Positions 1,231 through 15,526 of a stretch of DNA of 64,000 nt are shown piece by piece (positions within the stretch are counted from its first letter, which is position 1; every line of letters starts with the position of its first letter). This DNA is from a virus (lineage: Duplodnaviria; Caudoviricetes): IMG/VR virus record IMGVR_UViG_3300031555_001437; one strand, given 5' to 3'. The translations under genes were made by a program, and so were the position numbers. The notes below the pieces were generated by a model. The model was not told where the DNA came from and made no database searches. It saw only the letters and a list, made by a program, of their open reading frames with translations.

Positions 1231-1473
1231 CGACATAACCCAAAAGAGGATTACGTAGTAATCCGATATATCTATATCTATATCTATATCAGTATCTATA
1301 TCTTTATCTATATCAAGGTTATGTCTTGGTTTTGTCGTGGTTTTGTCCGCTAGGTTTTTCCCAGGGGTCATGACATAACTCGCGACATAACTGCGACATA
1401 ACTGTCCATTTTGGTTTTGTCGCGACCATTTGTAAACAAATTGTAAACGATTACTTTTCGGTATTGACAAAAC
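1231..1473. repeat. Putative replication origin: GACA(T/A)AAC iteron-like repeats in both orientations plus an (ATATCT)n tract
   Basis: GACATAAC at 1232, 1372, 1384, 1395; GACAAAAC at 1466; reverse copies GGTT(A/T)TGTC at 1317, 1328, 1339, 1413; hexamer tract 1266-1314; inverted repeat GGATTAC-GTA-GTAATCC 1248-1264. Confidence 0.6.
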
Positions 1474-1492
1474 ACCATTTTTGTATTATAAT
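1464..1492 (+). promoter_or_regulatory. Consensus SigA/sigma70 promoter
   Basis: TTGACA 1464-1469, 17-bp spacer, TATAAT 1487-1492. Confidence 0.9.
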
Positions 1493-6603: not shown

Positions 6604-6810
6604 ATGAAGTGGGGACGAGAAAAATATATTGAGTACTTCACCAAGATGCAAGAGGCGAATAAAATCGCTCCTCTTAGCCCAGTAGAGTGGAACTGGGTTA
6701 TTGCCAGAAGTTATGAGGCAACGGTAATATACAAGTTGGTTACGCAAAGCGAATTGGAAGATATGTTCCCAGATTTGTTTAAAGAAGATTATAGTGTATT
6801 TAAGGGGTGA
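6604..6810 (+). CDS. Hypothetical phage protein
   Basis: GAGGT RBS. Confidence 0.65.
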   Translation: MKWGREKYIEYFTKMQEANKIAPLSPVEWNWVIARSYEATVIYKLVTQSELEDMFPDLFKEDYSVFKG

Positions 6811-7019: not shown

Positions 7020-7214
7020 ATGAAGGTAAATGAAGAAAAATTAAAGAAAGCATCCACAGAAGAAATAATTAGAGGGATTTACTTAGTTGATGACGAGCTA
7101 AATAACGAAATGTATCCAGTGTCTGCTTATAGATGTAAATTGCTTTACGATTATAAGAAGAAACTCGAAGAAGAATTGCAGAAGCGATACAATACGAATT
7201 TTAAGACGAGGTAA
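7020..7214 (+). CDS. Hypothetical phage protein
   Basis: GAGGTG RBS. Confidence 0.65.
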   Translation: MKVNEEKLKKASTEEIIRGIYLVDDELNNEMYPVSAYRCKLLYDYKKKLEEELQKRYNTNFKTR

Positions 7215-7218
7215 GAAT

Positions 7219-7518
7219 ATGATTGAAATGACATATCATAATGACCATAAAGAAAAGTGGCAATCGCATGAAATTGAAATAAGAGAAAATGGTATTTTTA
7301 GCGCCGAAGTCGATGATAATGTGTGGGTATGGTCACACGACCCATTTAATATTACGGGGTACGGAGCAACCAAAGAAGAAGCAATAGAAGATTTCAAGAT
7401 AAAATTTAAATATATTATGAATGAACTAAGAGCTTTTGAAACAATGCTGCTTGATACCGATGTGATTACAGATGGCATTATTGAGGTGGACTGTGTTGGA
7501 AAGCCCATAAAAGATTAG
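7219..7518 (+). CDS. Hypothetical protein (cassette 1)
   Basis: GAGGT RBS; GYGATKEEAIEDF motif suggests a HicB-like fold. Confidence 0.7.
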   Translation: MIEMTYHNDHKEKWQSHEIEIRENGIFSAEVDDNVWVWSHDPFNITGYGATKEEAIEDFKIKFKYIMNELRAFETMLLDTDVITDGIIEVDCVGKPIKD

Positions 7519-7527
7519 TTTTAATAG

Positions 7528-7779
7528 GTGAAAATTATGAAGTGTAAAGAATGCGTGCATTATGGTATATGTGAATATAGTACATTTTCAGACAAAGGAA
7601 TTGATTGTAAAGATTTTATTTGCAAGGCAGACTATGTGAAGGTGATTAGATGTAGGGATTGCAAACACGCAACTTTTTATAGTTGTTCAAACGATGCTTG
7701 TTATCGAGGAATAATCTGCGAATATAGGATAGGAATAGGCGACGAGAATTTCTTCTGTAGTTGCGGAGAGCGCAGATAA
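7528..7779 (+). CDS. Cys-rich hypothetical protein (cassette 2)
   Basis: CKEC, CRDCKH and FFCSCGERR motifs; likely start ATG 7537. Confidence 0.7.
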   Translation: MKIMKCKECVHYGICEYSTFSDKGIDCKDFICKADYVKVIRCRDCKHATFYSCSNDACYRGIICEYRIGIGDENFFCSCGERR

Positions 7780-7804
7780 AATACGAATTTTAAGAGGTGA
7801 AGAT

Positions 7805-8089
7805 ATGAGTCTGTTATTAATTTCAGAAAAACTTTTACAGGAAGAGTTAAAAAAGAAACCTGAGAATCCGAGCGACCAACAAGATTTTTACTATTCTATG
7901 ATTGAAAAAGAATTGTACTTAATGAAGCGACTTAATATTGAAATGTGTAATATGCGTGGTGATGAAAAGGAAGTTGCCGACAGATTAGAACATAGCGAGA
8001 TTCTAATTTGTACTCATGAAGAAGCTGAGAATATACGTAAGTCTGTACAATTTAAAGATGAGATTATGGATGTCATAAATAGGCAATAA
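7805..8089 (+). CDS. Hypothetical protein (cassette 3)
   Basis: GAGGTG RBS supplied by the repeat. Confidence 0.7.
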   Translation: MSLLLISEKLLQEELKKKPENPSDQQDFYYSMIEKELYLMKRLNIEMCNMRGDEKEVADRLEHSEILICTHEEAENIRKSVQFKDEIMDVINRQ

Positions 8090-8114
8090 AAACAAACTTT
8101 TAAGAGGTATAAAT

Positions 8115-8288
8115 ATGACTATGTATTATGAATCTGGGTTTAAAAACGGAGTTATAAAGTTTGCAGAGTATCTAAAGAAGCATTCGTGTAAATATGACTT
8201 AGACAACTATCATTATTTTGAGGCAGTTGATATTGAAGATTTAGATGATTTGGTTGAGGAGTTCTTAGATAAGAAAGAGTACATATAA
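8115..8288 (+). CDS. Hypothetical protein, 57 aa (cassette 4)
   Basis: Translated by hand: MTMYYESGFKNGVIKFAEYLKKHSCKYDLDNYHYFEAVDIEDLDDLVEEFLDKKEYI; the stop is the TAA of the next repeat. Confidence 0.7.
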   Translation: MTMYYESGFKNGVIKFAEYLKKHSCKYDLDNYHYFEAVDIEDLDDLVEEFLDKKEYI

Positions 8289-8315
8289 AAATAAAATTTT
8301 AAGAGGTAAAAATAT

Positions 8316-8504
8316 ATGAAAGAAATAAAATACACTTGCCGTTATTGTGGCAAAACAAATACAATTACAACATTTTGGAAGTGGTTTTGGACCCCTCACT
8401 TTGGTGCTAAGAAGTGGATTAAGTGTAAGCATTGTGAAGTCAAAAGACATTTTATGAAGAGACAGGACTGGAACAAGCCTTGGTGGTTTGATTGGTATAA
8501 GTAA
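8316..8504 (+). CDS. Trp-rich zinc-ribbon protein (cassette 5)
   Basis: CRYC...CKHC; GAGGT RBS. Confidence 0.7.
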   Translation: MKEIKYTCRYCGKTNTITTFWKWFWTPHFGAKKWIKCKHCEVKRHFMKRQDWNKPWWFDWYK

Positions 8505-8531
8505 TAAAAATAGAGTTTTAAGAGGTAAATT

Positions 8532-8747
8532 ATGAAATTAAAAGATATACTTCCAGACCATTACATAAAGATTCAAGCTAGAACTACCGATCCGTTTGGT
8601 GACGATCTGTTATTTGGGTATTGTCACTGGACAGGCACAGAACTTGTATCCGATGATGGGGACAGTTATTCAATCGAGGAAGAGATTGTAAAGTATGAGT
8701 TTGACGAATATGGTTTGGCTTATTGGTTTGAGAGCGAGTGGACTTAA
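8532..8747 (+). CDS. Hypothetical acidic protein
   Basis: GAGGT RBS from the last repeat. Confidence 0.7.
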   Translation: MKLKDILPDHYIKIQARTTDPFGDDLLFGYCHWTGTELVSDDGDSYSIEEEIVKYEFDEYGLAYWFESEWT

Positions 8748-8760
8748 AGGAGGCATGAAT

Positions 8761-8937
8761 ATGAAAAAAGTAAAAGTAATTTGCCCTAAGTGCGGTAATG
8801 TTATGATTTATAAAAATTATTTTGATTGGACTTTTCGAACTCTTATTCATTGGTTTAATTTTTTAGAATGGAGAGACTATTGTAGAACCAAGTGCTCCAA
8901 TTGTGGCGAGATTTCTTACATCAGAAGGGAGAAATGA
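8761..8937 (+). CDS. Zinc-ribbon protein
   Basis: AAGGAGG RBS; CPKC...CSNC. Confidence 0.7.
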   Translation: MKKVKVICPKCGNVMIYKNYFDWTFRTLIHWFNFLEWRDYCRTKCSNCGEISYIRREK

Positions 8938-9646: not shown

Positions 9647-9675
9647 TTGACAAATTGCTCATCTTATGTTATAAT
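9647..9675 (+). promoter_or_regulatory. Consensus SigA promoter with extended -10
   Basis: TTGACA 9647-9652, 17-bp spacer, TG-n-TATAAT 9667-9675. Confidence 0.9.
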
Positions 9676-9710: not shown

Positions 9711-10262
9711 ATGGACTTAGTTAATATAAGTAAGTTTGTTAGTCTGATACTTCGTCACAAGCCAGAGGTTATCGGTATATCTCTTGATAAATACGGATGG
9801 GCAAATGTTGATGAATTGGTGCGTGGTATTCAAAGCAAATATCCTGGTTTCACAAAATTCCACCTAGAAGATATAGTTGCGAATGATGATAAGCAAAGAT
9901 ATTCATTTAGTGATGACAAACTGTGTATAAGAGCAAATCAAGGTCACTCAATTAATGTAGATGTTGAACTCAAAGAGGCGCAGCCGCCAGAGTTTTTGTG
10001 GCACGGCACTGGTCAAAAATACGTGCAAAGTATCTGCAACAGTGGATTATTGTCTAAGTCAAGACTATATGTTCATTTGTCTGCAGATATGCGTACTGCC
10101 ATCAATGTCGGCAAGAGACATGGCGATGTTGCACTGTTTAGGGTTGACGCTGAGCAAATGTACAAAGACGGATTCAAGTTTTATTTATCTAATAATGGAG
10201 TATGGTTAACCAAAGAGGTCCCAGTTAGATATCTTGGTGGGACAATTGTGGTAAAGGAATAA
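9711..10262 (+). CDS. kptA: RNA 2'-phosphotransferase (Tpt1/KptA family)
   Basis: SLILRH, DDKQRY, IRANQGHS, LWHGT, RLYVHLS and NGVWLT motifs all present. Confidence 0.93.
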   Translation: MDLVNISKFVSLILRHKPEVIGISLDKYGWANVDELVRGIQSKYPGFTKFHLEDIVANDDKQRYSFSDDKLCIRANQGHSINVDVELKEAQPPEFLWHGTGQKYVQSICNSGLLSKSRLYVHLSADMRTAINVGKRHGDVALFRVDAEQMYKDGFKFYLSNNGVWLTKEVPVRYLGGTIVVKE

Positions 10263-12751: not shown

Positions 12752-15526
12752 TTGAAATTACAAAAAACGCATATATATGCGCTGAAGCTGCACAGCAGTT
12801 TACTGGACGACTATAAATGGAATTATTCCACCACGATAGAGGAGCTGAGAAGAGGATCTTGCGCTGTCGTCAGTCTAAACGACAGCCAGGTTCTCAGGTG
12901 GTTGGCGAAGATTAACGGCACGGAGAACTCAGATGCGATAGCTAAGGTTATCAAGTCTGAGATTCGAAGACTAAAAAGAGAGCCGTCTACAAAAGAGAAT
13001 AAGCGTTTAATCAGTGAAAAATATAAGCAGCTCTATAAAACACGCTTCACAACCGACTATATGATGGTTGTTTTTGATAAAAAATCTCACTACGACAAGG
13101 CGCGCAAAGGGTTTACAATCACGGTTGACGGCGTGACGACAACTTATCGTAGATTTATAGGCACAGCGAATTCTATCAAGAAGAATACTATTATTTTTGT
13201 GAATGTTGAGGTATACGACCGTCTCATGTGGCACATGAACAACGGTCGTAACATGAGTAAGCCCGCTGTGCCTGCAAAATTGGAGGCGTATCTTTCTTTG
13301 GCGTGCTCTGGAAGTATTCCGCTTAAGGAGTTTCCGAGAATTATGGTCGTAGATGATTGCATTACGACTGCTGTTGTTCCAGAATTGATACACTTGGATT
13401 ACACTGATATGAGTGTGGATGAGCCAGTTATGGAGCTAATGCGTGACCAAGAGATAGAAATTAATGGGTCTGATGGCTTTGGTCTTATGACGCCAGAGTT
13501 TTCGCGCAGGGTAAATGCAGAACTGGGTGGAGACCCTGCTGAGTGCGTGACTTTTAACTCTCGGTGTGCGTTTGTTAAGGGCATGTTAGTGCCGTTTGAC
13601 TTCGTAGCTTTTGCTGAGCAAAAGGCAAATGGCGACTATTGCGTCAAAGACGCATGGGGAGCCATGAGAGATATTAGAGAATATGATGTAATTTTGACTG
13701 TTTCCATGTTGAAGTTATGGGACAGTTACGCCTCTTGTGAAGAATATGTTCGCAATTGCCACGAACATGATTTTGATTTTTGTGTTGCAAAAACTGCGCC
13801 ACATGTTTTGGACTCGCAGCAAACATCTAACTATCAGTTCTTGCAAGATTTCACAAATTTAACCGATGATGACATTGATGAACTTGTAGCTCCGACCGTC
13901 AAACACATTAAAGATGCTCTTGGCTTAGATTGGCGCAGATTATTGATGTATATGTGCGGCAAGGGCTTGGACGAGACTACTTATCAATATGCAGAACCCA
14001 TAGCTCGTGCTATCATGGCGTGCCCAGATATCATTAATGACAAATATATTAGAATGCGCATCGAAAAGATGATTGCAAAGAGTATCAAGGACGCTAAAAT
14101 TGGTGTGCTTCAGTTTCATGGCAACTTTCAGATCATCACTGGAGACCCATATTGTTTGGCTGAGTCTATTTTTGGACTTCCAAAGGTTGGTTTGCTCAAA
14201 GGCGGAGAGGCGTATAGTAAATATTGGGTTGACCGCGGGGTTGATTTGGTAACTGCGTTCCGTGCCCCAATGATTGTCCAGAATAACGTTGCGCAATTGA
14301 AAATTGTACACAATTCTGATATAGATTATTGGTTTCAGCATATTAAAAGTACAATTGTGCTGAATAATTTTAGTGACATTTGTATGAGAGAGTGCGGATG
14401 TGACTACGACGGCGATACATTTATGACTACAGACAACAGAGTGTTGCTGAATAGATATCGTCATTTGCCTGCTATCGATTGCGTTTCGAAGAAGCCAGAT
14501 AAGATTGTACCTACTGAAAGCGACTTTATTGCAAGTGAGAAACGCGGATTTAACGACCAAATTGGCGCCATAACCAACAAAGGAACTGGTCAGAAGAATA
14601 TGCAAGCCGCGTATGCAGATGGAACTGAAGAGAGTGACATTCTTGCGTATCGTGCAATTTGTTGTGTGCAGTTGCAGCAGTCGGAGATTGATGCTGTCAA
14701 AGGAGCATGGAGCAGACCAGCTCCTAAACACTGGTTTGATTATAAGTCGAACATAATTTCTGATGAAGACGACGATGAAATCGTCAAAACAAAAGAGCTA
14801 AACCAGAAATTAGTAGCTAAAAAGCCGTATTTCTTCATTTTTAACTACGATTATTTGCATAAAGAGTACACAAAATACATTAAAAACGTCAGTGCAAACT
14901 CACAGTTGCGGTTTGGTATTACGCTCGACGAGCTGCTGTCAAAAGCAGAACATTCGGACTTAGAGCGCGAATTTATTGATAATTATTATAAATATTTGCC
15001 AGTTGATAGCTCTCCTGGTGTAATAAATAGAATTTGTTGGAAGATAGAGGATGAATTTAAGGATACAGACGTACTGCCAGATGCTAATTTTGACTACCAT
15101 GTATTGACTTCTAATGCAACATATACAAAAGCAGAATTTGCGGCGGTTGAGGCTTTGTATTCAGAGTATATCCACACGGTTCGAAGCATAAAAAAGCAGT
15201 ATGCGCAAAAGCAAAACGACGTTGCAGACAATGATATGACCGCTGATTTGTATGTTGTTAAAGAGGCATGGAGAGAAAAATGCCTGTCCGTATGTAATAA
15301 CGAGAAGGTTTTGACGAACATTTTATTGGAAATTTGTTATAATTCAAACAATTCGAAGGCGATTGTGTGGGATATTTGCGGCGAGCAGATTGTAATGAAC
15401 TTGCTTGAGAAGAATGGCGGAGTGTTTAAGTTTCCCAGTCGTAACGCGGATGGAGACATTGAGTTTGACGGAGAAAAGTTTGCTATAAGTGAGGTGAAGT
15501 TTGATGAAGAATGTGACGTTCAGTGA
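12752..15526 (+). CDS. yonO: Single-subunit two-barrel RNA polymerase, YonO-like (related to eukaryotic RdRPs)
   Basis: 924 aa; SDGFG, KGML, FRAP and catalytic CDYDGD (DxDGD) motifs; position upstream of HU/terminase as in SPbeta. Confidence 0.85.
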   Translation: MKLQKTHIYALKLHSSLLDDYKWNYSTTIEELRRGSCAVVSLNDSQVLRWLAKINGTENSDAIAKVIKSEIRRLKREPSTKENKRLISEKYKQLYKTRFTTDYMMVVFDKKSHYDKARKGFTITVDGVTTTYRRFIGTANSIKKNTIIFVNVEVYDRLMWHMNNGRNMSKPAVPAKLEAYLSLACSGSIPLKEFPRIMVVDDCITTAVVPELIHLDYTDMSVDEPVMELMRDQEIEINGSDGFGLMTPEFSRRVNAELGGDPAECVTFNSRCAFVKGMLVPFDFVAFAEQKANGDYCVKDAWGAMRDIREYDVILTVSMLKLWDSYASCEEYVRNCHEHDFDFCVAKTAPHVLDSQQTSNYQFLQDFTNLTDDDIDELVAPTVKHIKDALGLDWRRLLMYMCGKGLDETTYQYAEPIARAIMACPDIINDKYIRMRIEKMIAKSIKDAKIGVLQFHGNFQIITGDPYCLAESIFGLPKVGLLKGGEAYSKYWVDRGVDLVTAFRAPMIVQNNVAQLKIVHNSDIDYWFQHIKSTIVLNNFSDICMRECGCDYDGDTFMTTDNRVLLNRYRHLPAIDCVSKKPDKIVPTESDFIASEKRGFNDQIGAITNKGTGQKNMQAAYADGTEESDILAYRAICCVQLQQSEIDAVKGAWSRPAPKHWFDYKSNIISDEDDDEIVKTKELNQKLVAKKPYFFIFNYDYLHKEYTKYIKNVSANSQLRFGITLDELLSKAEHSDLEREFIDNYYKYLPVDSSPGVINRICWKIEDEFKDTDVLPDANFDYHVLTSNATYTKAEFAAVEALYSEYIHTVRSIKKQYAQKQNDVADNDMTADLYVVKEAWREKCLSVCNNEKVLTNILLEICYNSNNSKAIVWDICGEQIVMNLLEKNGGVFKFPSRNADGDIEFDGEKFAISEVKFDEECDVQ

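Follow-up and report, generated by a model that had tools for sequence, protein, structure and literature searches.

The stretch of DNA under study (the window) comprises 64,000 nucleotides of a Caudoviricetes virus, IMG/VR record IMGVR_UViG_3300031555_001437, and between positions 7187 and 8526 it carries an array of short palindromes, ATAAAA-N6-TTTTAA, at consecutive junctions of small genes. By sequence comparison these palindromes look like fixed joints for slot-by-slot gene swapping, since the genes that lie between a given pair of palindromes differ from one related phage to the next and are unrelated. The array is situated inside an operon of about 30 small genes bounded by perfect sigma-70-type promoter matches at 1464 and 9647. 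With up to one mismatch allowed the motif occurs six times, only on the + strand and nowhere else in the 64 kb, while shuffling of the window gives 1.44 copies on average and never more than 4. The sites follow each other at distances of 320, 269, 310, 199, and 219 bp, and every interval holds exactly one open reading frame (ORF), of 99, 80, 94, 57, and 62 amino acids (aa), respectively, while a 71-aa ORF follows the last site. None of these ORFs has a significant Pfam or PHROG family, and they are unrelated to one another. An earlier note on this DNA had described six copies 199–320 bp apart, one unrelated small ORF per interval and no full motif at other junctions of the window, all of which was borne out; position 10259, regarded there as at most a degenerate copy, has no right arm and is rejected as a copy.

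In its context the array unit reads TAAAA-N6-TTTTAAGAGGT with the ATG codon 5–8 nt downstream, so that the right arm runs into the Shine-Dalgarno (SD) sequence of the next gene, as the note had it. The extended right half TTTTAAGAGGT, an 11-mer, has four occurrences in the 64 kb, all confined to the array. Some other features of the initial description need correction. Junction 1 has a degenerate left arm whose stop codon is lost, and therefore ORF 7020–7214 reads through this junction. The left arm was thought often to supply the upstream TAA, which it does at junctions 3, 4, and 5 but not at junctions 1, 2, and 6 (Table 1). The spacer is strictly 6 bp, with core TACGAA present at two sites; it is not freely variable, being position-specific and conserved between phages.

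Table 1. Palindromic junctions, cassette genes, promoter matches of the window, and a recombinase gene at the head of a related array.
Feature	Position	Strand	Remarks
Perfect sigma-70-type promoter match	1464..1492	+	heads the long small-gene operon holding the array
Junction 1, degenerate	7187..7212	+	ATACAA-TACGAA-TTTTAAGAC-GAGGT; left arm ATACAA, 3 extra bases before SD
Cassette ORF, 99 aa	7219..7518	+	without family match
Junction 2	7507..7529	+	ATAAAA-GATTAG-TTTTAATAGGT; upstream stop is TAG within core
Cassette ORF, 80 aa, Cys-rich	7537..7779	+	3' half and junction 82% identical to L101
Junction 3	7776..7798	+	ATAAAA-TACGAA-TTTTAAGAGGT; stop is left-arm TAA
Cassette ORF, 94 aa	7805..8089	+	without family match
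Junction 4	8086..8108	+	ATAAAA-ACAAAC-TTTTAAGAGGT; stop is left-arm TAA
Cassette ORF, 57 aa	8115..8288	+	
Junction 5	8285..8307	+	ATAAAA-ATAAAA-TTTTAAGAGGT; stop is left-arm TAA
Cassette ORF, 62 aa, zinc-ribbon-like	8316..8504	+	87% nucleotide identity to L097, in another slot there
Junction 6	8504..8526	+	ATAAAA-ATAGAG-TTTTAAGAGGT; upstream stop abuts motif
ORF past last junction, 71 aa	8532..8747	+	L107 homologue has degenerate junction
Next perfect sigma-70-type promoter match	9647..9675	+	upstream of Tpt1 gene
Small Xer-like recombinase P0001	L177:1447-2226	-	homologue in L178

No strong promoter or terminator match was found inside the array, and none of the six junctions forms a stable RNA hairpin (minimum free energy 0 to −2.6 kcal/mol, z about 0). 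The junction as an RNA hairpin, terminator or processing site is thereby ruled out for want of a stable fold, and a promoter within the junction is ruled out because the only strong matches lie at 1464 and 9647. Upstream of the array the genes starting at 6604, 6814, and 7020 possess right-arm-like ribosome-binding contexts (TTTGAGAGGT, TTTAAGGGGT, and TTATGAGGT) without a left arm, which look like eroded junctions. Many slot genes of the window (7537–8937) and of related arrays encode small Cys-rich, zinc-ribbon-like proteins of 50–100 aa, which fall into many unrelated families.

The phage can be placed by its polymerase. A 924-aa protein (12752–15526) belongs to the YonO/RdRP-like single-subunit RNA polymerase family, which places the window among the SPbeta-like phages; Tpt1 and ClpP are also encoded. 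The closest IMG/VR relatives are 158–175 kb genomes with direct terminal repeats, and two complete ones (G001 and G005) encode a Xer-like tyrosine recombinase adjoining a 313-aa protein with weak MrpR-domain matches, a pair which resembles yopP and yopR (mrpR) of the SPbeta yopMNOPQR operon. The mrpR, yopQ, and yopP genes are core genes of SPbeta-like phages (PMC10516654). According to the polymerase and to this gene pair in relatives the window is, as judged from sequence, part of an SPbeta-like phage of gut Firmicutes. The relatives found via the Tpt1 gene (L001–L016) have only that gene in common with it and are of no use for synteny, and no close DNA relative of the array was found in the phage collection.

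Scanning IMG/VR with a 23-mer pattern of the junction returned at least 103 stretches, and many contigs among the matches listed contain motif arrays co-oriented with the genes. The richest genomes carry 30 (G011, a 43-kb fragment), 25 (G012), and 22 copies (G013, complete, 153 kb), while reversed-pattern controls give 0–1. In the early/replication region of these three genomes the motif stands on about 1/4 to 1/3 of the genes and the mismatch histogram is bimodal, which indicates a distinct class of junctions and not a general ribosome-binding site. When the right half was used as the sole anchor, TAAAA was located exactly 6 nt upstream in about 116 of 129 copies (110 scored directly and 6 after discounting a TAAAA that ends the core). 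When every 5-mer-N6 dyad was scanned without bias, TAAAA-N6-TTTTA took the first place in SPbeta, G011, G013, G001, G005, and the window, with observed against expected counts of 34 and 1.9; 40 and 0.7; 41 and 1.5; 10 and 1.8; 9 and 1.2; 5 and 0.3, respectively. Spacings other than 6 had at most 5 copies, and at most 3 in array-rich genomes. The frequency of the motif in these relatives, which the earlier note had proposed to check, is far above expectation.

The SPbeta genome itself (AF020713; L192–L194) has 34 palindromes at early-gene junctions (for example at 86074, 95129, 113664, 115044, and 126703), all 34 with different cores, and some of them are annotated only as stem-loops. Here the symmetry of the arms reaches about 11 bp (T-Y-T-R-A-A-TAAAA), giving a 28-bp site of 11-6-11 structure, and the SD sequence lies 10–20 nt downstream of the palindrome; fusion of the right arm with the SD is therefore a trait of the gut lineage. 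The TAA of the motif is the true stop codon in 63 of 120 junctions, while in 42 others the stop is 2–14 nt upstream. In another relative, G007 (L208–L215), a 16-bp dyad whose centre is constant, CAATAATTTTGTATTG, was noticed in nine copies (for example at 121228 and 126913), several of which overlap TTGACA/TATAAT-like hexamers, and this dyad looks like a classical operator of that phage. Literature coverage that did not extend to the 1999 SPbeta genome paper yielded no paper on TAAAA-N6-TTTTA junction palindromes in phages, and they are unmentioned in the SPbeta review and in the MrpR paper (PMC10516654).

The 6-bp cores behave as addresses. Among 214 unique junction contexts 340 same-core pairs were counted against 27.9 expected (maximum 49), and in 96% of these pairs neither flank is similar. 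The window cores TACGAA, ACAAAC, ATAAAA, and ATAGAG are the commonest alleles, each found with many unrelated gene families upstream and downstream; in IMG/VR the TACGAA allele of junction 3 occurs in at least 11 unrelated contexts and the ATAGAG allele in at least 13 distinct ones. Moreover, the cores follow one another in a fixed order: the series AACATA-AGCGTA-TACGAA-ACAAAC-ATAAAA-ATAGAG-ATGAAG-ATATAC-ATTATA-ACTTAA is present, whole or in part, in G011, G012, G013, G002, G015, G003, and the window, and two more series are common to G011, G012, and G013. What lies between the cores is exchanged, with 6–7 gene families enclosed by ATAAAA and ATAGAG, 4 by TACGAA and ACAAAC, and 4 by TACGAA and ATAAAA. 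The closest relative of the window, L017, has an RNA polymerase 80% identical to that of the window and no array ORF in common with it; its ATAAAA and ATAGAG junctions stand in the same order with an unrelated ORF between them, and the genes on both sides of ATAAAA differ from those of the window. Gene content across the array is thus variable in relatives, identical junctions with their cores being flanked on both sides by unrelated genes. That the slot occupants are very diverged homologues is unlikely, as their composition and motifs differ and other small genes of those genomes stay 55–89% identical.

This conservation is to be seen against the divergence of the genomes, since the core genes of G011–G013 are just 45–85% identical and ordinary upstream regions of syntenic homologues about 41% identical. 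Homologous genes at 35–86% identity keep an identical adjacent core upstream in 5 of 8 cases and downstream in 4 of 6. For such core conservation we see no simple reason besides a need for matching cores between exchanging genomes. Neighbouring cores within a genome are also more alike than shuffled ones (2.95 and 1.94 matches; at least 4 of 6 matches in 44% and 13%, respectively), and in several genomes single genes are flanked by identical cores. Both observations suggest that arrays grow by junction-duplicating insertions, after which one copy diverges.

In cultured SPbeta-like phages the borders of homology can be examined at nucleotide resolution. The region yopS–yorF was compared among SPbeta, SPbetaL4, L6, L8, phi3T, and Goe13, all six of which have an identical core order. 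Between 23 and 32% of 249 internal homology ends are located within 10 nt of a palindrome centre, against 1–2% for random positions, and palindromic junctions have 1.91 homology ends each while other junctions have 0.46; they are preferred, not exclusive, borders. Relative to the palindrome centre homology starts cluster between −10 and −8 and stops between +8 and +9, which means that the whole palindrome including the core is shared and that unrelated DNA lies between palindromes. The earlier note had asked whether breakpoints fall inside the 6-bp spacer; the homology ends pile up at the palindrome, at its outer edges. A striking case concerns the anti-Gabija genes, different ones of which are kept in one dedicated locus of SPbeta-like phages (Yirmiya et al., bioRxiv 10.1101/2023.05.01.538930). 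The unrelated Gad1 (L4) and Gad2 (L6) are each situated after yoqX between palindromes with cores CAGAGA and ACGATA, while SPbeta and L8 have at this position the ACGATA palindrome only.

The cassettes also appear as units in uncultured phages. The window segment 8272–8536, which runs from one junction to the following one, shares 87% identity with L097, and the gene it holds is enclosed in L097 by two ATAGAG junctions. The homology of segment 7640–7808 with L101 continues up to the following start codon and no further. In G011 two slots whose cores differ are filled by members of one gene family, and many further cassette-sized homology islands end at junctions. Near-identical genome pairs that display a recent insertion were not found among the IMG/VR loci, where pairs were either 100% identical or diverged.

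Taken together, these data lead to a tentatively preferred reading, held at a confidence a little short of an even chance, in which the palindromes are dedicated exchange joints, protein-directed and core-matched. The junction is a 16-bp dyad TAAAA-N6-TTTTA with constant arms and a junction-specific 6-bp core conserved in order between phages; in the gut lineage its right arm is fused to the ribosome-binding site (TTTTAAGAGGT, ATG 5–8 nt on) and its left arm often serves as the stop codon. The stretch between two neighbouring junctions is a slot, filled by unrelated small genes in related phages. When SPbeta-like phages meet in one cell, genes might be exchanged slot by slot, an arm-recognising protein directing the exchange between partner sites whose cores need to match; core matching would keep the register and prevent deletions within a genome. 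New slots might arise when an insertion duplicates a junction and the core of one copy then mutates. A crossover inside the element, directed by a protein, is what we infer from these patterns, and protein direction is favoured by the strict 6-bp geometry, the symmetric 11-bp arms of SPbeta, the short shared tract (17–23 bp), and the matching cores.

A more specific version is possible, though doubtful: a natural recombinase-mediated cassette exchange, in which a phage tyrosine recombinase would cut at the borders of the 6-bp core and only same-core sites would recombine. If this were true, co-resident phages could swap anti-defence genes slot by slot with the order unscrambled and without self-deletion. 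Two candidate enzymes can be named. YopP-like recombinases were found in relatives of the phage, and a small Xer-like protein of 257–260 aa with the R..HxxR..H..Y signature intact by eye heads the arrays in G011, G013, and L183, followed by a GmrSD_N/DUF262 gene, both directly upstream of the arrays on the same strand. The similarity of the small protein to the integron-integrase subfamily is low (E-value 2.8e-4, 20 bits, with a cut-off of 265).

Several observations weigh against dedicated joints. Neither the window nor the complete genomes G001 and G005 encode the small array-head recombinase (for the window, a tblastn search with the enzyme of array-rich relatives was negative, no systematic recombinase scan having been made). 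The YopP/Xer-like gene is also present in the palindrome-less relatives G006–G008, so its co-occurrence with the motif is not specific, and G015, 92% complete and with six copies, has no PF00589 (tyrosine recombinase) hit; none of the recombinases is thus specifically tied to the motif, an association that the earlier note had proposed to test. Arm symmetry in the lineage of the window extends over 5–6 bp only, a short length for the core site of a recombinase. In several genomes direct repeats of identical-core junctions persist round single genes, whereas an active recombinase should delete the enclosed genes. In the Bacillus phages roughly one homology end in two is located elsewhere, and cassettes are found in different slots without their cores moving along. 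Finally, 15 of 16 joints in published phi3Ts x SPbeta laboratory hybrids lie in ordinary long homology. The sole non-homologous joint of these hybrids (N1) is reported near yosA (about 115044–116640), close to the two palindromes at 115044 and 116415 of SPBc2, with whose coordinates it could not be reconciled.

Plain short-homology recombination is almost as likely as dedicated joints, though by itself it too is better called possible than probable. It supposes that the junction owes its conservation to some other need, for instance translation or the binding of a protein, and that its 17–23 bp of identity offer the best microhomology, no dedicated enzyme being needed. There is a precedent in the promoter-early stem-loops (PeSLs) of T4-type phages, with shuffling of ORFans and mini-circles without a known recombinase (PMC2839356). 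In addition, an AAA_24 (Sak4-type) protein and a PD-(D/E)XK nuclease are encoded between the arrays of the array-rich clade, which keeps recombination of the PeSL kind a strong rival, and the persisting direct repeats, the unspecific recombinase co-occurrence and the origin of the laboratory hybrids by ordinary homologous recombination agree with it as well. However, it leaves unexplained the dyad symmetry, the strict 6-bp spacing, and the identical cores amid diverging genes and intergenic DNA. Efficient homologous recombination usually needs a minimum of identity at or above 17–23 bp when this is flanked by unrelated DNA, so that the tract shared here is at best at that limit.

It is unlikely that the palindromes are only operator-like sites bound by a dimeric regulator of the phage, akin to stoperators or to the SPbeta repeated element (SPBRE), without a role in recombination, the homology borders coinciding with them through selection against site-destroying recombinants. 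As is typical of operators, the palindromes have dyad symmetry and half-sites one helical turn apart, SPbeta-like phages possess repressors of recombinase fold whose targets are repeated sites (MrpR and SPBRE; PMC10516654), and a genuine operator-like dyad, constant at its centre, is present in the relative G007. Against this, the SPBRE derived from ten promoter regions of chromatin affinity purification sequencing (ChAP-seq) is AATATGTATAT-like, a different sequence placed in promoters and not at stop/ribosome-binding-site junctions, and MrpR ChAP-seq peaks are located at about 10 promoters, not at the 34 palindromes (PMC10516654). A regulator would explain neither the many different cores, each conserved by position and order, nor the homology that ends exactly at both outer edges. 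A translation signal only, in which a stop codon is followed by an A/U-rich leader without structure and by a strong SD sequence for re-initiation in a long operon, is very improbable: the SD within the right arm with the ATG 5–8 nt later, the unstructured junction RNA, the co-orientation of every copy with the genes and the lack of promoter or terminator matches within the array fit it, but the equally conserved SPbeta palindrome stands 10–20 nt from its SD, the TAA of the motif is a real stop in 63 of 120 junctions only, and core conservation, core order, and breakpoint clustering stay unexplained.

Thus, the proposal of a system for gene capture or shuffling in the earlier note holds as regards exchangeable one-gene units, which are supported by unrelated genes between the same junctions and by homology ends at palindrome edges. 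Its integron/pdif analogy and tyrosine-recombinase mechanism are not supported, given the fixed order, the sites unlike attC or dif, and the unspecific recombinase co-occurrence. Fixed gene content, a failure of breakpoints to coincide with the motif and lack of enrichment, which the note had named as speaking against it, were in no case observed.

Apart from the junctions, a second repeat, ACACGACARAATGA, has 9 matches in the window against 1.6 expected. Eight of them are on the + strand (1500, 3660, 9686, 16309, 20624, 25352, 29671, and 43068), just 3' of promoter-like sites or at operon starts, and the repeat is possibly a leader, or else a promoter element of the phage polymerase.

Counter-defence genes of phages sit in dedicated loci where they replace one another, and the palindrome marks such borders at nucleotide resolution, as in the anti-Gabija locus, where the experimentally validated Gad1 and Gad2 lie between two palindromes. 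The motif could flag anti-defence genes in uncultured Firmicutes phages, and its presence in SPbeta, a genetically tractable phage of B. subtilis, makes the question directly testable. If the exchange is site-specific, it would represent a natural multi-address cassette-exchange system.

Among known systems the start-associated sequences and extended start-associated sequences (SAS/ESAS) of cluster K mycobacteriophages (Pope et al. 2011, PMC3203893) share with the junctions a conserved SD-containing motif just upstream of some start codons. The ESAS has inverted repeats round a variable spacer of 4–13 bp and travels with its gene family, whereas here the spacer is strictly 6 bp and the junction does not depend on which gene families flank it (96% of same-core pairs). 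The SPBRE, the MrpR/YopR operator (Kohm et al. 2023, PMC10516654), is likewise a repeated intergenic element from this group of phages, and the protein binding it has a tyrosine-recombinase fold. It is a constant sequence with about 10 promoter copies, while the palindrome has 34 stop/start-junction copies with arms round variable cores. Identity of the two is ruled out: the SPBRE is a 15-bp motif common to the MrpR ChAP-seq promoter regions, and the 11-mers that these have in common are AATATGTATAT-like and not TAAAA-N6-TTTTA.

The Xer/dif and pdif sites consist, as here, of inverted arms round a 6-bp centre. The pdif site measures 28 bp, its XerC and XerD arms being 11 bp long, the SPbeta site is 11-6-11 (28 bp), and the lineage of the window has symmetric arms of 5–6 bp; no sequence resemblance was noticed between the palindrome arms and those of dif or pdif, and no recombinase is linked to the junction sites. 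In engineered heterospecific lox/FRT cassette exchange sites with different cores exchange only with their like, which is the logic proposed here for the junctions.

Integrons are also one-directional arrays of promoterless single-gene cassettes between imperfect palindromes, and attC clusters have been reported in phages (Qi et al. 2023, PMC9892861). The attC sites, however, are 55–141 bp long and fold as single strands with extrahelical bases, while the junctions are 16–23 bp long and unstructured (0 to −2.6 kcal/mol). An integron-type integrase is absent, the array-head recombinase being far below the subfamily cut-off. Integrons add cassettes at attI and their order varies, whereas here the site order is fixed and the contents are replaced in place.

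The PeSLs of T4-type phages (Arbiol et al. 2010, PMC2839356; Comeau et al. 2014, PMC4122927) are, like the junctions, short conserved intergenic elements flanking ORFans in hyperplastic early regions. In both systems genes are gained, lost, and replaced with the elements as borders, the comparison with integrons has been made and no dedicated recombinase is known. The defining PeSL property, that the elements flank ORFans and replacements end there, is found at the junction palindromes too. The differences concern the element itself, since a PeSL combines a sigma-70 promoter with a stable G/C stem-loop terminator, while the junctions match neither a promoter nor a terminator and do not fold stably; mini-circles have been demonstrated in the PeSL system but not here. 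In turn, PeSLs have not been described as A/T dyads of 16 bp whose cores are position-specific and conserved and whose order along the genome is fixed. In concept the junctions are thus closest to PeSL-mediated modular shuffling, and what sets them apart is an element free of promoter and terminator, with a recombinase-like dyad and address-like cores in fixed order.

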